Shown here: positions 397-16,008 of the stretch, piece after piece | Position numbering within the stretch: position 1 is the first letter of the stretch | Layout of the letters: the number at the start of each line of letters is the position of its first letter | NCBI RefSeq assembly: GCF_000146505.1 | Contig: NC_017448.1 | Span: forward strand, 3,780,001-3,812,000 | Origin: Fibrobacter succinogenes subsp. succinogenes S85 | GTDB taxonomy: Bacteria > Fibrobacterota > Fibrobacteria > Fibrobacterales > Fibrobacteraceae | DNA length: 32,000 nucleotides | Direction: 5' to 3' | Notes under the pieces: model-generated | Seen by the model: only the letters and a program-made list of their open reading frames with translations | Database searches by the model: none | What the model was told of the DNA's origin: nothing | Translations under genes and position numbers: made by a program

Positions 397-1580
397 TGCA
401 GATTAAAACTGATTACTCTGGTGTGAAATTCGCCGATAACGGCAAGCTGAAACTTTTGATTATCGTGGGTACGCGCCCCGAAATCATCCGCCTCGCGGCA
501 GTCATCAACAAGTGCCGCAAGTACTTTGACTGCGTTCTCGCGCACACCGGCCAGAACTACGATTACAACCTGAACGGCGTGTTCTTCAAGGACTTGAGCC
601 TCAAGGATCCTGAAGTTTACATGGATGCCGTCGGTGATGACCTCGGAGCAACCGTGGGTAACATCATCAATTGCAGCTACAAGCTCATGGTCGCTTGCAA
701 ACCGGACGCATTGCTGATTCTCGGTGATACCAACAGCTGCCTTTCTGCCATTGCCGCAAAGCGCCTGCACATTCCGATTTTCCACATGGAGGCAGGCAAC
801 CGCTGTAAGGACGAATGCCTGCCCGAAGAGACCAACCGCCGCATCGTGGACATCATCAGCGATGTGAACATGGCCTACTCCGAACATGCCCGCCGTTACC
901 TCGCTGACTGCGGCTTGCCCAAGGAACGCACGTACGTGACCGGTAGCCCCATGGCCGAAGTCCTGCACAAGAACCTCGCGCAAATCGAAGCGAGCGACAT
1001 TCACGCCCGCCTCGGCCTCGAAAAGGGCAAGTACATTTTGCTCAGCGCCCACCGCGAAGAAAACATCGACACCGAAAAGAACTTCACGAGCCTCTTTACC
1101 GCCATCAACAAAATGGCCGAAAAGTACGACATGCCGATTCTGTACAGCTGCCACCCGCGCAGCCGTAACCGCCTTGCCGCATCGGGATTCAAGCTCGACA
1201 AGCGCGTGATTCAGCACGAACCGCTCGGATTCCACGACTACAACTGCTTGCAGATGAACGCATTCGCCGTCGTAAGCGACAGCGGCACGCTCCCCGAAGA
1301 AAGCTCCTTCTTCACAAGTGTCGGCCACCCGTTCCCGGCAATCTGCATCCGCACCAGCACGGAACGCCCCGAAGCGCTTGACAAGGCCTGCTTCTTCATC
1401 GCCGGCATCGACGAAAAGTCCCTCTTGCAGGCCGTCGACACCGCCGTCACGATGAACTCCAACGGCGACTACGGCATTCCTGTGCCGGACTACATCGAAG
1501 AAAACGTCTCGACCAAGGTCGTGAAGATCATCCAGAGCTACACCGGCATCGTCAACAAGATGGTGTGGAGAAAGAACTAG
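396..1580 (+). CDS. wecB: UDP-N-acetylglucosamine 2-epimerase family, non-hydrolysing (CapG/FnlC-type by context)
   Basis: 394-aa ORF with GTRPEIIRL, HTGQNYDYNLN, HMEAGNR and SDSG motifs of the non-hydrolysing 2-epimerase fold. It directly follows a CapF-like gene. Confidence 0.85.
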   Translation: MQIKTDYSGVKFADNGKLKLLIIVGTRPEIIRLAAVINKCRKYFDCVLAHTGQNYDYNLNGVFFKDLSLKDPEVYMDAVGDDLGATVGNIINCSYKLMVACKPDALLILGDTNSCLSAIAAKRLHIPIFHMEAGNRCKDECLPEETNRRIVDIISDVNMAYSEHARRYLADCGLPKERTYVTGSPMAEVLHKNLAQIEASDIHARLGLEKGKYILLSAHREENIDTEKNFTSLFTAINKMAEKYDMPILYSCHPRSRNRLAASGFKLDKRVIQHEPLGFHDYNCLQMNAFAVVSDSGTLPEESSFFTSVGHPFPAICIRTSTERPEALDKACFFIAGIDEKSLLQAVDTAVTMNSNGDYGIPVPDYIEENVSTKVVKIIQSYTGIVNKMVWRKN

Positions 1581-1605
1581 TCAAGGCTGGTTGATTGCCG
1601 AATTT

Positions 1606-1640
1606 CAGCACCCCGCAAGAGCAGGGTGCTGTTTGTTTTG
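1606..1640 (+). terminator. Rho-independent terminator of the polysaccharide operon
   Basis: 8-bp stem cagcaccc/gggtgctg (1606-1613 and 1624-1631) with a 10-nt loop, followed by tttgttttg. Confidence 0.7.
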
Positions 1641-1672
1641 CTGGTGCTAGGGGTAAACCGTCACACCCCTAT

Positions 1673-1701
1673 GTCATCCCGGCCTCCGAGCCGGGATTTC
1701 C
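1673..1701 (+). repeat. REP-like hairpin element (gtcatcccggc...gccgggatttcc)
   Basis: 6-bp stem cccggc/gccggg. It has the same 'gtcatcc...' head as the elements at 11186 and 29386. Confidence 0.6.
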
Positions 1702-1759
1702 CTTTGCCGATAAATGGGAGGAGACTCCTCGGAAAAGAGCGAATTTTTATAAGTGGCTT

Positions 1760-1990
1760 GTGGCTCTCAAGAATGACCTGCAAACGCTCTTAGCTCTTGA
1801 AGGACAAGATCGTGTCTATAAATTTATTTCAGATAAATTTGGTGAACGCGTGACAAAAGCGTTGTTTGAAAACATGGGGGCGAGTATGAAAAAGGAATTT
1901 GATAGCGGAAAAGTTAGAATTAGTAAAGCAGGGACAATTGGTTCGGTAGGAGTTTTGGCTTCGCATGGACACACGTTTTATGGGTCGTAG
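1760..1990 (+). pseudogene. ORF fragment with no convincing start, possibly the 5' part of a frameshifted gene continuing at 1965-2264
   Basis: The track ORF 1595-1990 starts at TTG and runs through a terminator and a REP hairpin, so its 5' third is not credible. The first plausible start is GTG 1760. It overlaps the next ORF by 26 nt in another frame. Confidence 0.25.
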
Positions 1991-2264
1991 AAGGACTCCG
2001 ATTGAACAGTTGAGAGACTTGAACGGGAAATATGTTGTTAATCCGAAACCATTGGAATTGGCTGAAGGAGCAACTCGTTTAGAACATGTATATGACAATC
2101 AGAAACAAAGACTATGCCTTTATCATCCTAAGAAAAGACCATGGGATAGATCGATGCTTTTATCTGAAACGGTAATTCCATGGGCGATTGAGTGGCTTTA
2201 TTTCTATGAAATTTGGCTTTGTACTGGTCAATGGTTGGGCGGTGGAGAGCATCCCGTAAGGTAG
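1965..2264 (+). CDS. Hypothetical protein with an E2/UBC-like H-x9-C-L...W motif
   Basis: 99-aa ORF. The segment LEHVYDNQKQRLCLYHPKKRPW has the same His-to-Cys spacing as the E2 signature HPNIxxxGxICL...W. The C-terminus is Trp-rich (IPWAIEWLYFYEIWLCTGQWLGGGEHP). Confidence 0.4.
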   Translation: MDTRFMGRRRTPIEQLRDLNGKYVVNPKPLELAEGATRLEHVYDNQKQRLCLYHPKKRPWDRSMLLSETVIPWAIEWLYFYEIWLCTGQWLGGGEHPVR

Positions 2265-2305
2265 ATGTAATTGCTTTTTTTTTCACGCTTCGGAAAAAAA
2301 ATCCC

Positions 2306-2388
2306 GTTTTGTCACAAACTGTCAAAATGGATTATGTATTTTAGGGGTGTGAAAAGTGCGCTTGTCACGCTAGATGGTTTGACAAGCG
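2306..2388. promoter_or_regulatory. Operator-like TTGTCA half-sites and a 9-bp inverted repeat upstream of the first Panacea antitoxin gene
   Basis: ttttgtcacaaactgtcaaaa (2307-2327), plus a perfect inverted repeat cgcttgtca (2359-2367) and tgacaagcg (2380-2388), lying 31-60 nt upstream of ATG 2419. Confidence 0.3.
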
Positions 2389-2418
2389 TTGAATTAAACT
2401 CTATCTTTGTGGTGTAAA

Positions 2419-2982
2419 ATGAAGACTCTAGAGCAAATAAAGAAAATCGAGAATGTGATACTCTATGTATTGCAGAAGTTTGATGACGGCGTAGACTACA
2501 TCAAGCTTTTCAAGATAATCTATTTTGCCCAAAGGGATTACCTGTGCCGTTTTGGCAAGACTTTGGTCCCAGAAACTTTCAAGGCCAGGATGCATGGCCC
2601 TATCCCGACATTGACCGACAAGGTCATAAAGAATGTCGAAGATGGGGTGGGTGACGATTTCCCCGACTTGAAGGAGTTCATGGAATCCATCAAGGTTGTC
2701 GACCAGAAGGTCTATGCCTTGAAAGAGCCGAATCTGGATTTTATCGCAAAGAAGGAACGCGAGTACCTCGACAAGTGGTTTGACTACTGCAAGGACAAAA
2801 AGTCCTATGACCTGTCCGAGGAATCTCACGATGCTGTTTATCATAGCGTTGTCGCCAGGTCCAAGAAGGATCCTCAGCAGGATGTTATGACGAATATCGA
2901 TATTGCGATGTCCGGTCACGCTTCCGACAAGATGATTGAGTACATCCGCGAAAAAGAACTTCTTGTTGCCGAGTTAGCGTAA
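2419..2982 (+). CDS. Panacea/DUF4065 (SocA/PanA-like) antitoxin domain protein, pair 1
   Basis: The segment IKLFKIIYFAQRDYLCRFGKTLVPETFKARMHGPIP matches the DUF4065 core (KLqKLlYfaq...g.pl....f.aw.hGPV). I prefer ATG 2419 to TTG 2407. Its stop overlaps the next start (TAATG). Confidence 0.75.
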   Translation: MKTLEQIKKIENVILYVLQKFDDGVDYIKLFKIIYFAQRDYLCRFGKTLVPETFKARMHGPIPTLTDKVIKNVEDGVGDDFPDLKEFMESIKVVDQKVYALKEPNLDFIAKKEREYLDKWFDYCKDKKSYDLSEESHDAVYHSVVARSKKDPQQDVMTNIDIAMSGHASDKMIEYIREKELLVAELA

Positions 2983-3473
2983 TGGAAGACAAAAACGGAG
3001 TTCTTGCCAAACTTCATGACGAAGTTTGCGTGGTGAAGTATGCTGAAGACTTGCATGTCGGTGATATCATCTATGTGCAGCTTGATTCGGCGGATGGCAT
3101 TAATACCCAAGGGTATCCCACTAGGCTGAAATATGTTGTTGTTTCCGGAGCTAAGTCGGACCGGAAACAGATTGCTGCAGTTTTGATAAATTCGGAAAAC
3201 GATTATTCCAACGATCCTGAATGGCAAAATGAGCAGTACCTGCTTTCTCAGAAGAATTATGCCGATTTTTTGGAATACGACAGTTGGCTGGACTGTTTTG
3301 AAATTAAGGAACTCAAAGTCCGCAAAATTGTTGCAAGGAAAGCTGAAAAGAAAGGTTGCTTGAATAATTATGACTTGCGTGTCATGATGCAGAAATTGAA
3401 GGATTCTGAATTCATCGACGAACACCTGAAAAAGGTGTACGGGATAAATTCATTTGAGTTGCCTGAAAATTAG
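2982..3473 (+). CDS. Uncharacterised toxin candidate partnered with the Panacea antitoxin, with a MazF/PemK-like sequence pattern
   Basis: 163-aa ORF that is translationally coupled. The order GDIIYVQL...RLKYVVVSG...IAAVLINSE...YDSWLDCFEIKEL...KKGCLNNYDLRVMMQKL parallels MazF (GDIVWVDF...RPAVVLS...CVPCTT...ADQVKSI...KKGTVAPEELQLIKAKI). Confidence 0.6.
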   Translation: MEDKNGVLAKLHDEVCVVKYAEDLHVGDIIYVQLDSADGINTQGYPTRLKYVVVSGAKSDRKQIAAVLINSENDYSNDPEWQNEQYLLSQKNYADFLEYDSWLDCFEIKELKVRKIVARKAEKKGCLNNYDLRVMMQKLKDSEFIDEHLKKVYGINSFELPEN

Positions 3474-3583
3474 TGGGGCGAGGGATAGGTTTATAAACGA
3501 GGAATGCTGACTTCTGCGAAACCGAAGCCATCAACAACCAGGTGTCCTTTTACAAGACCGATACTTTCATAAGGAATAAATAT

Positions 3584-3757
3584 ATGACTTACGAATTTGA
3601 TCTTCATGAAAGCAGGGAAGAAGGAAGGAAAGAAGCTGAGGCTAAGGCGTTGGAAGAGAAAAAAGCCATGGCCAGGGGATTCCGCGATGACGGATTTCCT
3701 TTAGAAGCTATTTCTAAACGAACCGGATTTACAGTCGAAGAAATTAAAGCGTTGTAG
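3584..3757 (+). CDS. Small charged/HTH-like protein resembling the C-terminal tail of Rpn/YhgA-like putative transposases, possibly a gene remnant
   Basis: 57 aa from ATG 3584. The EEGRKEAEAKALEEKKAMARGF...ISKRTGFTVEEIKAL pattern resembles that tail. A strong terminator follows. Confidence 0.4.
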   Translation: MTYEFDLHESREEGRKEAEAKALEEKKAMARGFRDDGFPLEAISKRTGFTVEEIKAL

Positions 3758-3785
3758 CTTTTTTCTGCTTCAAAATCTTTTCTAC

Positions 3786-3818
3786 AGAGCATCGCAAATT
3801 GCGCTGCTCTTTTTTTTG
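3786..3818 (+). terminator. Rho-independent terminator
   Basis: Stem agagca/tgctct with an inner gcaa/ttgc stem (3786-3810), followed by a T8 run. Confidence 0.7.
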
Positions 3819-3831
3819 TTGATGCGGAGTA

Positions 3832-3860
3832 TTGACAAACGGAAAAAACTTGTGTATATT
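3832..3860 (+). promoter_or_regulatory. Sigma70-like promoter candidate for the second Panacea pair
   Basis: TTGACA (3832-3837), a 17-nt spacer, then TATATT (3855-3860). The direct repeat tgtgtatat occurs twice just downstream. The promoter consensus for this phylum is an assumption. Confidence 0.3.
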
Positions 3861-3971
3861 TTATAGTGTACAAATGTGTATATCTGAAGCTTGTGAAAAG
3901 AATGAAACCTTGTTTTGGGGAGATGTTGACTGAATGTATTCTTTTTCATATTTTTATAGAGAAGGTGTTTA

Positions 3972-4514
3972 ATGTCTGCTTTTAAACCGCTATTTGGCAA
4001 AGAGGTCTTGCTTAACGCAGCTTTGTGGGTTGCTACGAAGTTGCCCGAAGACCAATGTCGCTTGCATAAGATTTTTAAAATCTTGTGGTTTGCTGACTTA
4101 TACCACCTGAAAAAATATGGTAGGACTGTTACAGGTGATACCTATATCGCTATGAATAATGGTCCTGTTCCATCTGTTTTATACGATGAAATGAAGTTTA
4201 CGCCTTCGGAAGGAGATGCGTTTCGGAGGTTTGACAAGGGCTCTGAAAAAGGGTTTGTTGTTCCTTTGAAAACTGTTAATTCTGATTTCTTGTCGGAATC
4301 AGATATAGAGGCTTTGTCGTATTCTTTTGATTTGTATAAAGATAAATCATTTGATGAATTAACTCGATTGTCCCATCAGCATGCATGGAATTCTGCACAA
4401 AAATCTGGTATGAATACATCCATCAGGATAGATGAAATTCTGGATGAAATTGGTGCTGATTGCGAATTACGCAAATATGTAAAAGATGATATTCTTTTTA
4501 GGCAGGCTCTTTAA
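3972..4514 (+). CDS. Panacea/DUF4065 (SocA/PanA-like) antitoxin domain protein, pair 2
   Basis: LHKIFKILWFADLYHLKKYGRTVTGDTYIAMNNGPVPSVLYDEM matches the DUF4065 core. The next ORF starts 2 nt downstream. Confidence 0.75.
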   Translation: MSAFKPLFGKEVLLNAALWVATKLPEDQCRLHKIFKILWFADLYHLKKYGRTVTGDTYIAMNNGPVPSVLYDEMKFTPSEGDAFRRFDKGSEKGFVVPLKTVNSDFLSESDIEALSYSFDLYKDKSFDELTRLSHQHAWNSAQKSGMNTSIRIDEILDEIGADCELRKYVKDDILFRQAL

Positions 4515-4516
4515 TT

Positions 4517-4924
4517 ATGGACTTGCCAAAAAAGTTAATAGGGGAATTGTATTCTGAACGCGGTTCTGTCGTGCATTCAGAGATGAATTCTGTGATAAAG
4601 ACGGATCACGGAAAGTATTTGTTGGTAGTTAAGAAAACGGAATCTCTAATTGTATGTTGCTCTATCAATACGAATAGGGTGTATTTCAAACCAGAAGAAT
4701 CTCAGCCTAAAATTCTGAAACGGGAAAATGATTTTCTTGATCATGATTCTTATGTGGATTGTGCTCAGGTTTTTTCGATTGAAATGCAAAAGTTTTATGA
4801 TAATATCAAAACAGGTGTTTTTGTGCCGATAGGTTTTTTGAATAATCTTGCTATGGCAGCTGTTCTTCGTGCCGGGCAGACCTGTAGAGTTTTGAAAAAA
4901 TTCGAGCAGGAATATTTTAAGTAA
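4517..4924 (+). CDS. Uncharacterised toxin candidate, distant paralog of 2982-3473
   Basis: 135-aa ORF. It shares the layout KYLLVVKK...IVCCSINTN...DFLDHDSYVDCAQVFSIE with the first candidate (DS[YW][VL]DC motif). Confidence 0.55.
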   Translation: MDLPKKLIGELYSERGSVVHSEMNSVIKTDHGKYLLVVKKTESLIVCCSINTNRVYFKPEESQPKILKRENDFLDHDSYVDCAQVFSIEMQKFYDNIKTGVFVPIGFLNNLAMAAVLRAGQTCRVLKKFEQEYFK

Positions 4925-4953
4925 AACAATAAATTTAAAATAGGAGAATATAA

Positions 4954-5384
4954 TATGCTGACTACTATATCGCATATTTCGATGTTCTTGGCTGTAAATC
5001 GTTCTTCTCTGGCAATGAACAGGCTGAACTTGAATTCGTACAAAATTTGAAGAAAAAGATAGAGCGTTCTGTGAAGTCTGCGATTTCAATTAATAGTTCG
5101 TTCGTACTGAGTCAACTTGCTGATATGCGAGTGGAATATAAATTGTTTTCAGACAATGTTGCTTTATGGATGTATTGAGAGATAATATAAGCAAGTATTG
5201 TAATTACGACGACATTGATAATAAAAACTCTGATGATGTGGCGGCAAAGGCAAAAGTTATTCGTAAGTACAAATGGCTTGTTGTTTATCATAATCAGTTG
5301 TGCTATATGCATAAAAAAGAAGATTGTATTTTGACCATCAATTATACATTTGATTCTGTAACTTTGAATGAATGCATGAATTAA
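4954..5384 (+). pseudogene. Decayed gene in three consecutive frames, with a palm/class III cyclase-like N-terminal pattern
   Basis: An AGGAG RBS sits before ATG 4955 (31-aa ORF). The open frame 4954-5178 reads YADYYIAYFDVLGCKSFF...(45 aa)...KLFSDNVALW. A third frame covers 5142-5384 (track ORF 5166-5384). Confidence 0.3.
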
Positions 5385-5509
5385 AAGTCTATATGTTATA
5401 GCCTTATTGCTCTTTTAAATAACTTCTGTGGAAGATTGCTTTAATCTTGTTTGGAAGCCGTTGCAAGTAGATTGGTGTGAAATCGCTCCCATGCAAATTA
5501 GATTTGAAT

Positions 5510-7699
5510 ATGAACTACGATTTCTCTGTTTTAAGCGATAATGATTTTCAAGAAATGGTCGATAAACTCTTGATTGGTAAAACAAGAGTCGTTGAACAGT
5601 ATGCCGAAGGCCGTGATAATGGGATTGATGGACTTGTCTATGACCTCCCTAAGGAAACCATCGTTCAAGCGAAACATTATCTTAGGTCTGGTTTTAGCAG
5701 GTTAAAGAGTGTAATAAAAAAAGAGGAATTGCCAAAAATTCAAAACGAGAATATTTCGTGCTATGTTTTAGCGACATCTTTAAATTTATCTCGGAATCAG
5801 GCTGAAACATTAAGAGCTTTGATAAAGAATGTCGTTCAAGACGTAGTTGTTTTGGGTGCGGTTTCAATAAGTGGTCTACTTGACAAAGATCCTGCGACTT
5901 TGAAATCTACCATAAAGTTGTGGGCGACGAACGCCGAAATAGTTAGGATGCTCTTTAAACCCGCTAACATGAACTGTTTTTATGAACTGCAGAACCGATG
6001 GGAAGACTTAAATAATGTGTTTGTTGAAACTCCTGATGTGAAGAATGTGGTGGATTCGCTAGAAAAGAACCATGTAGCTGTAATTGCTGGCGAACCTGGC
6101 GTGGGAAAGACTACTTTGGCTGAATATATTTGTCTTCTTTATTTCAAAGAAGGGTATGAGGTTCATTTCTTTGAGGGTAAGTTTTCGCACGACGATTATG
6201 ATTTAAGTGATACGGAAAAGAAGATTATCTTCTATTTTGATGATTTTTTAGGTAGCACCTATTACAACTGTTTCTCTGGGAAACAGGACTGTTCTATTGT
6301 TAATTTCCTAAAACGGATGTCAAAAGAAAAGAACAAACGATTTATTCTTACTTCTAGGACGAATATCATTCAAAAAGCATGTGCCTATAGCCAAAGATAT
6401 CGAGATTATCGTCTTACGAAACGGGCGTATATAGTTAATGTGGGGGAATACTCTTATTTAACAAAAGCTAGAATTTTGTACAATCATTTGCAAAATTCAA
6501 ATGTGGGGGCTGGTGAAATTGCGAACATTGTGAAAAACAAAGCTTATAAGACGATTGTTGAACATAGAAATTTTAATCCCCGACTAATCCATTTTATTAC
6601 AAAACAGGAGAATTTTGAAGATTCGCAACAAGAACATTATTTAGAGTTCATCATTGAATCATTGGATAATCCTAAAGAAATTTGGGAAAATTGCTTTACA
6701 GGGCAATTAGACTCTTCTCAACGCCTTTTAGTTCAATTAGTTGTTGCTAATCGAGAAAAAATTCAAGAGAGTACGCTCAAGAATGCATATAGTAAAGCGC
6801 TTGTTGTAATGGGTATAAAAATTCCTGAACTGGAACGTAATGATTTTGAATATGTTTTGAGTGGGTGTCTTCGATCTATCTTAAGAAGGGATGTTGAAAT
6901 ATCGGGTGGATGCAAGAAAGCTATTGTTTCTGTGTTTAACCCATCTGTTACCGATTATGTATTGCCCACCATTTTAGAAAGAGATATAATAGTTAAATTG
7001 TGTAGTGTTCTTGGAACGGTTGATTCCATAACAATTATAGAATCAAATGAAGAAAAAATTGATGATGTTCAATCGATCTATAGGGATATTGTAAAAGAGA
7101 TCCCTAAAAAAACGTGGTCAGATGCGAAAATTCGTTTAATTCGCCTTATGGGAAATAAGTGTGGGCTTGTTCCTAATCTGATAAAATATGCTATAAAAAA
7201 TAACGACATAATTACTGATGATAATAAATTTGATTTTTATTTTATCGTTATAGAAAATTTATCCAAATATGACTTTTCTGAATTTATCATATGCTGTGGT
7301 TGGTCTTTTTGTAACGATTATTCGGATTTTGGTGCTATTTTAGAGGGTTATAGAAAAACATCTTTTGCTCAACATTTTGTTATTGAATATCTGCAAGAAT
7401 GTGTGTATGAATCATTGCTTGATGATATTGAAAATATTTTGGGAAATGAAACTGATGCTTTTATATGTACATCATGTGAAGAAGTTGCGGAAGAAATGAA
7501 AATTTTTTTGGAGGAAATCAAAGATACGTATCCATTTTTGAAAGAAGATGAAATTGACTCTATTCGCGAAAATGTTGATTTAAAAAGTATTGTTGATCGA
7601 AATTTTAAATTTTTTGAATCTGCAAAAAATAGTAGTTGCGAGAAAAAAGAGCAAGAAGATATAAAGAATGTTGATGCTTTATTTAGTGGTTTGTTGTAG
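5510..7699 (+). CDS. Mrr-like PD-(D/E)xK nuclease fused to a STAND-type P-loop NTPase with a helical C-terminal region (defence candidate)
   Basis: The N-terminus LSDNDFQEMVDKLL...GRDNGIDG...IVQAKHY has a restriction-endonuclease-like core. Walker A is GEPGVGKTT and Walker B is IIFYFDDFLG. RFILTSR is a STAND/NACHT-like motif. I prefer ATG 5510 to GTG 5477. Confidence 0.8.
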   Translation: MNYDFSVLSDNDFQEMVDKLLIGKTRVVEQYAEGRDNGIDGLVYDLPKETIVQAKHYLRSGFSRLKSVIKKEELPKIQNENISCYVLATSLNLSRNQAETLRALIKNVVQDVVVLGAVSISGLLDKDPATLKSTIKLWATNAEIVRMLFKPANMNCFYELQNRWEDLNNVFVETPDVKNVVDSLEKNHVAVIAGEPGVGKTTLAEYICLLYFKEGYEVHFFEGKFSHDDYDLSDTEKKIIFYFDDFLGSTYYNCFSGKQDCSIVNFLKRMSKEKNKRFILTSRTNIIQKACAYSQRYRDYRLTKRAYIVNVGEYSYLTKARILYNHLQNSNVGAGEIANIVKNKAYKTIVEHRNFNPRLIHFITKQENFEDSQQEHYLEFIIESLDNPKEIWENCFTGQLDSSQRLLVQLVVANREKIQESTLKNAYSKALVVMGIKIPELERNDFEYVLSGCLRSILRRDVEISGGCKKAIVSVFNPSVTDYVLPTILERDIIVKLCSVLGTVDSITIIESNEEKIDDVQSIYRDIVKEIPKKTWSDAKIRLIRLMGNKCGLVPNLIKYAIKNNDIITDDNKFDFYFIVIENLSKYDFSEFIICCGWSFCNDYSDFGAILEGYRKTSFAQHFVIEYLQECVYESLLDDIENILGNETDAFICTSCEEVAEEMKIFLEEIKDTYPFLKEDEIDSIRENVDLKSIVDRNFKFFESAKNSSCEKKEQEDIKNVDALFSGLL

Positions 7700-7882
7700 T
7701 TTTTTTTGTAGACCGTTTTGCATTAATTTAATTTTGAACAAATTGCGAACATCTGATTGAACGAACTCACTTCCAAAAACTTTTGAGCTTCGCTCCAAAT
7801 CCGCTGCGGCTCGTAAATGCCCGAAAATCGGTCACTTCTCTCGCCTTGCTGGATTTATTATATTTGAAAAGTACGAGGAATT

Positions 7883-7920
7883 AAAAAACGCGCAGGCTAA
7901 TCAATAGCCTGCGCATTTTC
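7883..7920 (-). terminator. Terminator of the GH116-like gene (symmetrical, possibly bidirectional)
   Basis: Stem gcgcaggct (7890-7898) and agcctgcgc (7906-7914) with a 7-nt loop. A T-run follows on the minus strand (aaaaaa at 7884-7889 on plus), and attttc follows on the plus strand. Confidence 0.7.
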
Positions 7921-7940
7921 TTGTGCGTTGAATTTTCCGA

Positions 7941-10900
7941 TTACTTATAAAGCAGAGCGAACACCATGCCCGGGCGGAAGTACTTACCAGCGGTGTACTT
8001 GAGTGCCGTGCTGTGGAGGAGCGTGAAGAGCTCGTTCACATCAACCTTGTTGCTCTTGGCAATGGCGCCGAATGCCTTCGTGAAGGTGGCGAGATTGCGC
8101 GGGAGCTTCGGGCTGATGCGGGAGTCGGCGAGGAGTGCGCCCTTCTTCAGGAGTTCCTTGTGCATCTTGTCGGCGGCAGTTGCGCTGAGGCCGAACTTTG
8201 CAACGAGTGCTTCCGGGTGGAGGCGGCAAGAACCGTTGAATCCTTCCGGTGCAGCGAACGGAACGCGGGCTTCGTCATAGAGGTTTCCGATCATGGAATC
8301 GGCGAGCACGGAGGCTTCCTTTTCCAAACCGTGGAACATCATGGCGGTCATGATGCTGTACTGAATGCCGATCCAAACGTCGTGAGCCTGGAAGTTGAAT
8401 TCGTCGAGCGGAGAACCGTCCTTACGAACAAGGTTTGCAGCACCGATGAGCGGGCTGTTGGCCTTATAGTTCGTATTGAAAATTCTGAGCAAGTTAGACT
8501 TTGCCTTAGCGCTGTCGGTAATCGGTTCGAGGTCGAGCAAGCGGAGGTAAGTGTCTGCAAGCATCGTGTCGGCGAACACGTCGTCGCAGTCGTTGGCTAT
8601 CTTTGCTTCCCAGCTCTTGGTGAAGGCTTCCTTGCACTGAGCCGTAATCCAAGCCTTCTTGAGACCGCGGAGTTCGTTCTTGGAGAGGTCTTCGCCGTCC
8701 GGGATTTCGCCTGCGCAGAGCCATTCGTTGATTGCCTTCACGCCAGCGTTCGGATCTTCCGGGAGTTCCAGAGAAACCTTCACGGCTTCGCGGAGTTCGG
8801 CGTACTTTTCGACGTTCAAGTCCTTCATTTCCATCGGGGTCACGAAGAAGCGGAAGTAGCCTTCGTTTTCGTCCCAGAGGGATTCGGTGAATTCCTTGTT
8901 GGCGGCTTCGGACTTTTCGTTCCACTTGGCAGCTTGTTCGTTGTCGCCGAGGAGCTCTGCAATCTTTGCGGCAGCGCGGAGGCCTGCAATCCAGAGGGAA
9001 CCGCAGTAAACGGAGATGCCGTAGCTGCAGAGGTTGTCGAACGTATCGTCCGTACCGTGCGTGAGCGGGAAGTTTTCGCCCGGGTTCACCATCTTTTCTA
9101 GGTATTCCATAGCGGCGTAAACGGCTTCCTTGCAATCGGCGAGGCACTGCATGTCCTTCGTCTTGTGGTAGTGACGGTAGACCATGAGCACGTATTTCGG
9201 AGCGAGGTCCTTCCATTCCTTAACGTTGTGCCAGTCGTAGGCATCCGGTTCGGCGTCGAAGGGGCTACCGAGGTCGTGAATCACAGCGCCACGCACAGCG
9301 CGCGGGCCTTCGAGCTTCGGATCCGGGAGGTCGGCGTAGGGGAGGTTCACAAATTCGTGGTGACGGCGACGGTTGTTGTTCACGGCGAGGATTGCATCAC
9401 CAAAGCGCTTCATCACAACGCCATCGAGGCGCGGCATGAGGGCGAGCAAGCTAAAGCTGCCGTAGAAGTAAACGTCGAGAGAGTTGAAGAACGGATAGTC
9501 GGCGCATTCGCGGACTAGGAAACGGTCTTCCTTGTCCCACACGGTGGCTTCGGCGAGGAAGCTGAGCGTGTTGATGGCGAGGCTCTTGAATTCAGCCTGC
9601 TTGGCGGCAGTCTTGTAGAGCTTGGCAACCGGCTTCTTCGGAACAAGGTTTTCAAATGCCTTGAGGCGATCATCAAAAGTCTTGTCGGCAGCGAGAGCTT
9701 CCGTAAGGAGGGCGACTACGCGGCCGTATGCTTCCGGGTAGAATGCGGTGTACTTCTTGGCGGAAGTGAGCTTGTTCAGCTTGATTTCCGGGAAGTCGAG
9801 CACCATGTTGAACTGGAAGGAGACCTTCTGCTTCGGCTTGAGGACTGCGGTAACGGCGATGGCACCGGCAATCGTTTCACGTCCGCTGTAAACGTTCTTG
9901 ACCCAGGAGCCTGCAACGCGACCGCTCTGGAGAGCTGCCTTCAAGACGGACTTGGCGTCGTCCTGGTAGAACATCGGCTTCACGGAAACGTTGAGGTTGT
10001 CCTTCTTGTTCCAAGCTACGCTCACACCCATGCAACCGTTGAAGTCGCTTTCGGCGAGAGCCTTTTCGTTATAAAATTCGATACCGCGAACAGAGCGGCC
10101 ATCTTCGAGTTCCTTGTCGAACTGCACGCCCTTCGGGAAACGTGCTGCCGGAACGAGAACAAAGCTGGAGTCCTGAACGCCCTGGCGGTCCTTCTTGGCC
10201 ATGTAGCCCGTGATGCTGTCCTGAATCTGGACGATCGTCACTTCGCGGGTTTCCTTGGTGTTGTTTTCGAGCGTGAAGACGGTGGCGTTCACCGGGAGGC
10301 TGGAGAGGCGTTCGTCGCCCGGAGTCACGTAGCTGGACTGCGTCTTGGTGATGGCGACACCCTTGCCTTCATAGACAGTTTCGCTAACCGGATAGAGGGC
10401 GGTGTACTTCATCTTGGCGGCGTCATAACCCGGCTGGCCGAGGAATTCGCTGTCGTTTGTCCAAGCGGCGGTGAGAGCGCCTTCGCGTGCAGCCTTTTCG
10501 CCAACCATGCCGTCGAAGAAGTCAATGAGCACGGCGCGGTTGATGGCGGCGGTGTCCTTGCCTGCGGCGATCAAAGCCTGAGTGCGGTCGCTGAACTGGA
10601 TGTGCCAGCGTTCAAAAGCGGCCTTGTTCGTTTCGAAGAAAGTCTTGTCGGCGAGAACCTTGTTGAGCTTGGCTTCGGCCTTCTTCTGGTCCTTCATGTC
10701 GGCGTCGCCGAAAACGCGTGCGCCATTAGCATCGAGGAGCGGGAAGTTGTTGTTGTAAATGCCGAATGCGGCGAAGTTGCCAATCACAAGCGCAGCCTTT
10801 GCGCTGAGCACAGCTTCCTTGAAGAAGAAGTTGTTGAAGCGGAGGTCAGAAGCCTTTTCGGTGCGAACCTGGACGCCCGGCATCACGTTCATCACGGGAG

Positions 10901-11084
10901 TCGTGCCTGCTGGCGTTGCTGTAAACGTAGAACCGATACCGCCCACGGCAATACCCGTGGTGGAAGGAGTTGTAGAAAGCGGGGTGTACCACGGCTGAAT
11001 GAATTCCACAGCGAGACCCGGGGTCATCAGCTTTTGGACGGAGCCGGACATTTTTGCACCGGCAAGATATTCTTTAATGCTCAT
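7941..11084 (-). CDS. GH116-like (GBA2-type, DUF608) beta-glucosidase/glucosylceramidase family protein, cytoplasmic
   Basis: 1047-aa ORF. The motifs GIAVGGIGS, YPFFNSLDVYFYGSFSLLALMPRLD, HDLGSPFD...WKDLAPKYVLMVYRHY and VYCGSLWIAGLRAAA match GBA2/GH116 signatures from memory. No signal peptide is present. Confidence 0.8.
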   Translation of the reverse strand: MSIKEYLAGAKMSGSVQKLMTPGLAVEFIQPWYTPLSTTPSTTGIAVGGIGSTFTATPAGTTPVMNVMPGVQVRTEKASDLRFNNFFFKEAVLSAKAALVIGNFAAFGIYNNNFPLLDANGARVFGDADMKDQKKAEAKLNKVLADKTFFETNKAAFERWHIQFSDRTQALIAAGKDTAAINRAVLIDFFDGMVGEKAAREGALTAAWTNDSEFLGQPGYDAAKMKYTALYPVSETVYEGKGVAITKTQSSYVTPGDERLSSLPVNATVFTLENNTKETREVTIVQIQDSITGYMAKKDRQGVQDSSFVLVPAARFPKGVQFDKELEDGRSVRGIEFYNEKALAESDFNGCMGVSVAWNKKDNLNVSVKPMFYQDDAKSVLKAALQSGRVAGSWVKNVYSGRETIAGAIAVTAVLKPKQKVSFQFNMVLDFPEIKLNKLTSAKKYTAFYPEAYGRVVALLTEALAADKTFDDRLKAFENLVPKKPVAKLYKTAAKQAEFKSLAINTLSFLAEATVWDKEDRFLVRECADYPFFNSLDVYFYGSFSLLALMPRLDGVVMKRFGDAILAVNNNRRRHHEFVNLPYADLPDPKLEGPRAVRGAVIHDLGSPFDAEPDAYDWHNVKEWKDLAPKYVLMVYRHYHKTKDMQCLADCKEAVYAAMEYLEKMVNPGENFPLTHGTDDTFDNLCSYGISVYCGSLWIAGLRAAAKIAELLGDNEQAAKWNEKSEAANKEFTESLWDENEGYFRFFVTPMEMKDLNVEKYAELREAVKVSLELPEDPNAGVKAINEWLCAGEIPDGEDLSKNELRGLKKAWITAQCKEAFTKSWEAKIANDCDDVFADTMLADTYLRLLDLEPITDSAKAKSNLLRIFNTNYKANSPLIGAANLVRKDGSPLDEFNFQAHDVWIGIQYSIMTAMMFHGLEKEASVLADSMIGNLYDEARVPFAAPEGFNGSCRLHPEALVAKFGLSATAADKMHKELLKKGALLADSRISPKLPRNLATFTKAFGAIAKSNKVDVNELFTLLHSTALKYTAGKYFRPGMVFALLYK

Positions 11085-15497: not shown

Positions 15498-15512
15498 GGG
15501 GGTGCTCTGGTT
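15498..15512 (+). repeat. Exact 15-nt duplicate of the tmRNA 5' end
   Basis: gggggtgctctggtt occurs at 15498-15512 and again at 15651-15665, in the same orientation. Confidence 0.9.
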
Positions 15513-15650
15513 GGCCAAAATTCCTGCTACTCGCAGCAATTTTGCCCTCCGGGTCTTTCGAACGCATGCGTTCTCAAGAGCTTAAATGCTCGCTAGCTCG
15601 CATTTAATCGACAGGCCTGTCTCAACCGAGCATCCTTGTGTAGAACACAA

Positions 15651-16008
15651 GGGGGTGCTCTGGTTTCGACAGGGTTACCGAAGTGTTAGTTGCAAGTCGA
15701 GGTCTCAGACGAGGGCAACTCGTTAAAAAGTCTGAAAAAAAATAAGTGCTGACGAAAACTACGCACTCGCTGCCTAATTAACGGCAACGCCGGGCCTCAT
15801 TCCGCTCCCATCGGGATGTACGTCCGGACGCAATATGGGATAGGGAAGTGTCATGCCTGGGGGCATCTCCCGAGATTTACTAGGCTGGTCAAACTCCGCG
15901 CCGACCTTCTTGGGCGTGGATAAGACGAGATCTTAAATACGAAGGGAACACTTGTAGGAACGTACATGGACGTGATTTTGGACAGGGGTTCGACTCCCCT
16001 CACCTCCA
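15651..16008 (+). ncRNA. ssrA: tmRNA (SsrA), tag ADENYALAA
   Basis: The 5' end is GGGGGUGCUCUGGUUUCGACAGGG. The 3' T-arm GGGGUUCGACUCCCC is followed by CACCUCC-A, which pairs with the 5' end and includes a G3:U wobble. CCA is not encoded. The tag ORF gct gac gaa aac tac gca ctc gct gcc taa lies at 15748-15777. Confidence 0.9.

Follow-up and report, generated by a model that had tools for sequence, protein, structure and literature searches.

Background

Dataset S1 of Kurata et al. 2022 (PNAS 119:e2102212119, PMC8832971), headed 'Predicted PanAT pairs (1268)', assembles toxin-antitoxin (TA) pairs in which an antitoxin with a Panacea domain, PanA, is encoded next to a small toxin, PanT. The subject of the present work is a locus with two such pairs, found in a 32,000-nucleotide stretch of the genome of Fibrobacter succinogenes subsp. 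succinogenes S85 (assembly GCF_000146505.1, contig NC_017448.1, positions 3,780,001 to 3,812,000), which is referred to below as the window and whose own coordinates are used throughout. Both pairs are best explained as Panacea antitoxins followed by toxins of MazF-like fold, a description which is correct but already published.

Two rows of the catalogue, filed under GCF_000146505.1, consist of exactly these proteins: WP_015732385.1|WP_014547293.1 (pT5/T5, order A|T, gap -1, score 5|5) and WP_014547295.1|WP_014547296.1 (pT5/T5, order A|T, gap 2, score 2|2), both marked 'notest' (PMC8832971). The entries, which are predictions only, place both toxins in cluster T5, whose representative, a Steroidobacter protein and the one T5 member analysed in this way, was reported to match mRNA interferase EndoA (99.53%), MazF6 (99.53%), MazF (99.51%), PemK-like proteins (99.41%) and CcdB (98.3-98.5%) in HHpred (PMC8832971). 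An earlier note on this DNA had regarded the small proteins as belonging to no named family, and possibly to a new Panacea-partnered one; since both exact pairs are catalogued in an EndoA/MazF/PemK-like cluster, the finding was already known and that suggestion falls. A further S85 row with a gap of 5 (WP_014547082.1/WP_015732312.1, cluster T1) was considered as the second pair and rejected, since it belongs to a third PanAT locus in another part of the S85 chromosome.

The closest pairs with experimental validation are those of Pseudomonas moraviensis and Bifidobacterium ruminantium, which likewise encode a Panacea antitoxin upstream of a small toxin without CDD match. Their PanTs, EndoA/PemK/MazF-like by HHpred, are toxic and act specifically against protein synthesis; PanA neutralises them, and the tested PanAs need neither ClpXP nor Lon to do so (PMC8832971). 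The P. moraviensis toxin lies in cluster T6, unlike the two toxins considered here (T5), and its likeness to them is by published description. According to Ernits et al. 2023, PanA neutralises either directly or via appended elements, and Panacea has been proposed as a possible sensor.

On the toxin side, the canonical MazEF and PemIK (Kid-Kis) systems offer the natural comparison. Their toxins have the fold predicted for both PanTs of the window (Foldseek E 1e-5 to 1e-6, target-normalised TM score, TMt, 0.57-0.74), together with a GD...hydrophobic beta-1 strand and a D-S motif ahead of a long beta strand, and the genes form the same small bicistronic operon with the antitoxin first. The antitoxin itself differs, being a Panacea protein in the window and an AbrB/MazE or ribbon-helix-helix protein in MazEF/PemIK. 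The PanTs are also 20-50 residues longer than canonical MazF, carry a C-terminal helical extension and score below the Pfam cutoff, and the residues invariant in their family are a Lys and an Asn, whereas the canonical Arg/Thr pair of MazF is not conserved as such.

The two gene pairs

All four genes lie on the + strand, and an exact-sequence look-up returned S85 database proteins identical to each product:

2419-2982, + strand: panA-1, Panacea-domain antitoxin, 187 aa (WP_015732385.1, Fisuc_2697; database name 'Panacea domain-containing protein')
2982-3473, + strand: panT-1, MazF-fold toxin candidate, 163 aa (WP_014547293.1, FSU_3266; Kurata cluster T5)
3972-4514, + strand: panA-2, Panacea-domain antitoxin, 180 aa (WP_014547295.1)
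4517-4924, + strand: panT-2, MazF-fold toxin candidate, 135 aa (WP_014547296.1, FSU_3269, hypothetical; Kurata cluster T5)

In pair 1 the stop codon of panA-1 and the start codon of panT-1 share one base (junction GCG-TAATGG, an overlap of 1 nt), and in pair 2 the genes are separated by 2 nt (TTTAA-tt-ATG). The four open reading frames (ORFs) and both junctions were confirmed from the sequence exactly as the earlier note had placed them, and none of the four ORFs is disrupted or shortened in comparison with the members of its family. Records of S85 differ on the start of panA-1, which is TTG at 2407 in GenBank (ADL27055.1, 191 aa) and ATG at 2419 in WP_015732385.1 (187 aa); the ATG is favoured because a promoter-like -10 box (2402-2407) overlaps the TTG. 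The UniRef entry for PanT-1, UniRef100_C9RN29, already bears the name 'PemK-like, MazF-like toxin of type II toxin-antitoxin system'.

Both upstream proteins contain the DUF4065/SocA Panacea core that had been assigned to them from the letters alone. Against the Pfam model SocA_Panacea (PF13274), whose gathering score is 25.7 bits, PanA-1 reaches 49.9 bits (6.9e-13, residues 30-139) and PanA-2 reaches 77.3 bits (2.3e-21). The Panacea signature GPV, an important conserved motif in a beta-strand of the domain, is recognisable in both, as NGPVPS in PanA-2 and as HGPIPT, a conservative V-to-I variant, in PanA-1. The two proteins are 31% identical to each other (E=3e-14) and stand alone, with no N-terminal helix-turn-helix domain ('noNTD' in Kurata Dataset S1). 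The sole PHROGs family that they match is phrog_1281, of 'unknown function', and none of the proteins of the locus, antitoxin or toxin, is represented by a model in PADLOC.

The founding Panacea protein is SocA, the antitoxin of the type VI system SocAB of Caulobacter crescentus, which has the same Panacea/DUF4065 domain as PanA-1 and PanA-2 and delivers its toxin to ClpXP. The antitoxins of the window could in principle be proteolytic adaptors of this kind instead of sequestering their toxins: both weakly match the NCBIfam model SocA_antitoxin (NF047745), with 29.1 and 15.5 bits (7e-7 and 0.01), and Kurata et al. point out that one mechanism does not have to preclude the other (PMC8832971). 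These scores are nevertheless far under the equivalog cutoff of 190, neither toxin is related to SocB, which inhibits the sliding clamp and belongs to cluster T10, and the tested PanAs neutralise without ClpXP or Lon. We give the adaptor model hardly any credence, and direct binding is the mechanism to be expected for both pairs.

The explanation that we consider probable, with appreciable room for doubt, is that the locus holds two independent bicistronic PanAT modules, each made of a stand-alone PanA followed by a translationally coupled toxin with the SH3-like barrel of MazF/PemK (cluster T5), likely an RNase which PanA neutralises.

Relatedness and predicted fold of the toxins

The two downstream proteins share the ordered motifs to which the earlier note had drawn attention, namely KYVVV/KYLLV, LINS/SINT and DFLEYDSWLDC/DFLDHDSYVDC, in PanT-1 and PanT-2 respectively. 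Their similarity is beyond chance, both when they are compared directly (BLASTP E=7e-6, 30% identity across 67 aa) and when the alignments of their families are compared by hhalign (79% probability, E=1.5e-5, 84 columns). Judged by these alignments, PanT-1 and PanT-2 are distant homologues of each other. An exhaustive profile search for the family to which they belong returned 1,555 clusters (50% identity) at E<=1e-3 and 611 at E<=1e-10; the best 150 clusters listed range from 93 to 212 aa, most of them between 130 and 175. The PanT-2 subfamily is narrow and of Fibrobacter type, with only about 30 relatives in a word-indexed search.

AlphaFold2 (AF2) monomer models of good quality scores were obtained for PanT-1 (pLDDT 88.3, pTM 0.83) and PanT-2 (pLDDT 89.1, pTM 0.84). 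When the PanT-1 model was compared with the PDB by Foldseek, the top 50 matches were all MazF-family chains (best E 1.9e-5, TMt 0.57-0.74); for the PanT-2 model, ranks 1-39 were all MazF (best E 8.7e-6). Among viral models (BFVD), the best matches, reported for PanT-1, were annotated 'PemK-like protein' and 'Endoribonuclease'. Both models add one or two helices C-terminal to the MazF core, the extension of PanT-1 covering approximately residues 129-152. As modelled, then, the fold of PanT-1 and PanT-2 is a MazF/CcdB-type SH3-like beta-barrel, in line with what had been guessed from the order of their strands.

CcdB and MazF have the same fold, and the two proteins could therefore be imagined as CcdB-like gyrase poisons and not RNases. 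CcdB does occur among the fold matches of PanT-2 (7epi and 4elz, E~0.02, TMt 0.68-0.70), and it is also in the published HHpred list of the T5 representative. It first appears, however, at rank 40 (E 0.02), some three orders of magnitude in E-value behind MazF, and it is absent from the top 50 PDB matches of the PanT-1 model. At the sequence level neither protein has a CcdB match in Pfam, and the weak matches that exist go to PemK_toxin and MazF models. A gyrase poison is consequently very improbable.

In PHROGs neither toxin candidate matched anything credible. A sub-threshold NCBIfam match of PanT-2, residues 60-99, was observed to the Mycoplasma model 'Mbov_0400 family ICE element protein' (positions 60-99 of 152; E 2.5e-4, 21.3 bits against a cutoff of 55), spanning the DFL..DS..DC motif only; the Mbov_0400 proteins may represent a further branch of this MazF-fold family.

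Conservation and origin of the pairs

Seven relatives, with 26-80% identity, gave 16 loci from which the conservation of the pairing and the INDEPENDENCE of both pairs were judged. In this survey of the toxin family alongside DUF4065 genes, a SocA_Panacea gene was found directly upstream of the toxin gene in every locus (16/16), on the same strand and overlapping it or a few nucleotides away, in neighbourhoods which are otherwise unrelated. The family is also phage-borne, as a PanAT pair is present on the IMG/VR viral or prophage contig UViG_3300014039_000542 (39.8 kb), where at 2243-3267 the genes for a PanA of 190 aa (PF13274, 6.7e-18) and for a toxin-family member of 151 aa overlap by 4 nt.

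The two pairs of the window are found apart from each other elsewhere. In the Fibrobacter metagenome-assembled genome GCA_017961645.1 (1897-11308), an orthologue of pair 1 lies beside a tyrosine integrase, CTD6, MC2 and AAA_23 genes and a CAP12-PCTIR TIR protein; a separate PanAT pair 4 kb off combines a PanA (PF13274, 1e-21) with a 144-aa PanT-2-like partner (hhalign 99.1% to the family profile). Orthologues of pair 2 occur alone, with no pair 1, inside polysaccharide-biosynthesis clusters. Several metagenomic members of the PanT-2 cluster are truncated.

Between pair 1 and pair 2 no DNA-level repeat or similarity was detected within the window. A recent tandem duplication was rejected for lack of direct repeats or DNA similarity and on account of the orthologues that each pair has elsewhere, and on the same grounds the idea of a four-gene functional unit was discarded. 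The earlier note had spoken of diverged duplicates. Kinship of the toxins stands; local duplication does not, as the pairs are only about 30% identical, have no DNA repeat and have orthologues that occur alone. Their separation elsewhere and the missing DNA repeat point to anciently diverged paralogues acquired independently. Most likely, the modules are distant paralogues that arrived separately; the island they share with other defence genes is inserted with polysaccharide-biosynthesis genes on one side and a GH116 gene on the other.

Surface polysaccharide loci recur as surroundings of the second type of pair. PanAT pairs with a PanT-2-type toxin were seen within clusters encoding Wzz, Wzy_C, Polysacc_synt and glycosyltransferases (L007, L014, L015 and L016), and in L014-L016 the pair is directly upstream of the same pair of genes, Epimerase/Polysacc_synt_C and Epimerase_2, that flanks the island of the window. 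The module may settle preferentially in variable loci of this kind.

Genomic context

Both pairs are contained in a low-GC (guanine-cytosine) island at approximately 1650-7950, with 28-45% GC against 50-60% in the flanks. Features of the island and its borders, other than the four genes above, are the following:

4-396: end of a Polysacc_synt_C gene, left flank of the island
396-1580: Epimerase_2 gene, UDP-GlcNAc 2-epimerase, left flank of the island
1595-1990, + strand: C-terminal remnant of a CBASS cyclase (PADLOC oligonucleotide-cyclase model PDLC00780, 6.5e-17; profile positions 289-386 of 388, the last ~100 positions)
1965-2264, + strand: remnant of the C-terminal half of a CBASS E2 protein (PADLOC CBASS E2 models, 1.5e-33; profile positions 65-139 of 149)
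3542-3757, + strand: 71-aa ORF FSU_3267, between the pairs, corresponding only to the extreme C-terminus of recombination-promoting nucleases of the Rpn family (TIGR01784, E 1.5e-6, below cutoff; positions 215-272 of 273)
5477-7699, + strand: STAND NTPase, 740 aa (nSTAND3 PF20720, 1e-43; full-length PADLOC PDC-S73, 1.6e-152)
7941-11084, - strand: GH116 glycosidase gene, right flank of the island

By its gene content, the low-GC region is a typical defence island. The overlapping cyclase and E2 remnants, as their profile matches indicate, are what is left, at the left-hand end of the island, of a CBASS system that has decayed (1595-2264). No tRNA gene, integrase or flanking direct repeat was found at the island borders within 1400-8300. 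The ORF between the pairs, FSU_3267, also matches the tail of phrog_3300, 'transposase', is followed by a terminator-like hairpin and has no nuclease domain upstream. The C-terminal parts of E. coli Rpn genes also give rise to separate small proteins that serve as intragenic antitoxins (PMC10400941), and FSU_3267 could be either the remnant of a gene or an orphan protein of this RpnS-like type. The STAND NTPase has the same architecture as PDC-S73, a candidate defence system of PADLOC; annotations differ on its start (740 aa in GenBank, 729 aa in RefSeq), and its N-terminal ~190 residues weakly match the restriction endonuclease domain Mrr_cat (E 0.0044, below cutoff).

Candidate transcription signals were located around the pairs:

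2379-2407, + strand: sigma-70-like promoter candidate TTGACA-17-TATCTT, 10/12 consensus matches, 12 nt upstream of the panA-1 ATG
3786-3818, + strand: terminator-like hairpin GAGCAUCGCAAAUUGCGCUGCUC then U8, between the pairs (dG -15.1 kcal/mol, z -2.2)
3832-3860, + strand: sigma-70-like promoter candidate TTGACA-17-TATATT, upstream of panA-2, with 11/12 positions matching, a consensus match only
3926-3954, + strand: second sigma-70-like promoter candidate upstream of panA-2, a consensus match only

The hairpin was missed by the consensus scan because its stem is bulged. Elsewhere in the window, and unrelated to the PanAT pairs, ARAGORN identified a tmRNA gene at 15498-16008 (+ strand) with the tag peptide ADENYALAA.

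Predicted active site and mechanism

The fold, and the behaviour of validated PanATs with other MazF-like toxins, suggest by analogy how each module would operate. Free PanT would be a sequence-specific, ribosome-independent endoribonuclease which brings translation to arrest. Cognate PanA would bind PanT directly and hold it inactive, as in type II systems, via either its Panacea core or its helical C-terminal tail of 40-48 residues. Loss of PanA or a triggering event, such as phage infection or loss of the island, would then release the toxin.

For the active site, the toxin family was aligned by hhalign with a small MazF/EndoA alignment, the reference sequences of E. coli MazF and B. subtilis EndoA being identical to PDB chains 3nfc_A and 4me7_A; the match has 57-70% probability (E 5e-6 to 1e-4), and alignment confidence is low. 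We take the catalytic residues of MazF to be Arg25/Thr48 in BsEndoA, equivalent to R29/T52 in EcMazF. In a sample of 91 family sequences only Lys50 and Asn70 (PanT-1 numbering; Lys33 and Asn51 in PanT-2) are invariant, and Gly27, Leu97, Ser101, Cys105 and Gly125 are conserved in at least 90%. At the stated probability of 57-70%, hhalign places the invariant Asn70 on EndoA Thr48, and it aligns the column of EndoA Arg25 with Pro46 of PanT-1, directly after which comes a four-residue insertion, T47-R48-L49-K50. The location of the active site is probably conserved with respect to MazF, to judge from this alignment, and RNase activity of PanT-1 and PanT-2 appears likely, by a chemistry which is not demonstrably the same as that of MazF.

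A number of observations weigh against two working modules with RNase toxins. The canonical catalytic Arg is unconserved: R48 is invariant in the PanT-1 subfamily only, is replaced by His31 in PanT-2 and is lost in intermediate relatives. The catalytic Thr column of MazF is occupied by Asn, and with both changes taken together RNase chemistry is not assured. Neither protein reaches the Pfam gathering score for PemK_toxin (PF02452, 23.1 bits), PanT-1 scoring 15.5 bits and PanT-2 scoring 14.2 bits, although in favour of the MazF assignment weak matches to this model recur in 27 of the 46 members of the PanT-1 family (best E-value 1.3e-4). HMMER profiles built from four family alignments returned no MazF or other credible match among PDB sequences, so that the link between these toxins and MazF is visible by profile-profile comparison or structure only. 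From the literature, the only T5 pair tested, from Chryseobacterium bovis, had a 'toxic' toxin and an antitoxin that was also 'toxic' (Table S1; Fig. S6B, overexpression; PMC8832971), and with both partners toxic it falls outside the typical TA pairs; in E. coli, a further eight PanTs showed no toxicity (PMC8832971). No T5 member has yet been validated as a working TA pair. Finally, the calls of promoters and terminators do not rise above chance, the region having as many sigma-70-like boxes as shuffled sequence. The earlier proposal that each pair has its own promoter or terminator is thus weakly supported: candidate boxes precede each antitoxin gene and the hairpin lies between the pairs, but the boxes are no more numerous than in shuffled sequence.

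The unusual residues raise a real, if minor, possibility that the proteins keep the MazF fold with a different activity, Lys/Asn having replaced Arg/Thr and the substrate being tRNA, rRNA or DNA, or binding having taken the place of catalysis. Apart from the restriction of invariance to K50 and N70 and the loss of R48, such a change would agree with the position of the family below the PemK thresholds of Pfam (7/91 members match PF02452 at E<=0.01), with the added C-terminal helical extension and with the caution of Ernits et al. 2023 that a conserved fold need not mean conserved function. On the other hand, K50 and N70 map at or beside the catalytic positions of MazF, which argues for the same active-site location, all the top structural matches are MazF RNases, and the validated MazF-like PanTs inhibit translation.

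It is also conceivable, though improbable, that the modules do not function as TA systems at all, the small proteins being non-toxic or weakly toxic, or the genes being decaying remnants in a degenerating island. The island does contain clear remnants (the CBASS cyclase C-terminus, the E2 fragment and the Rpn tail), truncation affects several metagenomic members of the PanT-2 cluster, and the toxicity records of C. bovis and of many tested PanTs point the same way. Yet the four ORFs are undamaged, the adjacency of antitoxin and toxin is tightly kept in unrelated contexts, and the motifs are strongly conserved over the 1,555 clusters.

Beyond the preferred explanation of PanA-neutralised RNase toxins, a more far-reaching version can be imagined, which we regard as possible but rather doubtful. 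In it, T5 PanTs would form a distinct catalytic branch of the MazF fold, with Lys/Asn for Arg/Thr and another RNA target or chemistry, and PanA would be a phage sensor, not a passive plug; the two modules would be non-cross-reacting abortive-infection systems with different triggers.

Conclusions

Beyond correct annotation the finding matters little, both pairs having been catalogued as predicted PanATs with MazF-like toxins. The details that are new here are the size of the family, the invariant Lys and Asn near the catalytic Arg and Thr of MazF, and the setting, an island of low GC that also contains an nSTAND3 gene (PDC-S73) and the remains of CBASS genes. Fibrobacter succinogenes is an important degrader of cellulose in the rumen, and descriptions of its defence islands are poor. 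The T5 family is large, with conserved residues unlike those of canonical MazF, and no pair in it has been experimentally validated. With two PanA/PanT pairs that are about 30% identical in one locus, this island constitutes a natural test case for the insulation of cognate specificity.

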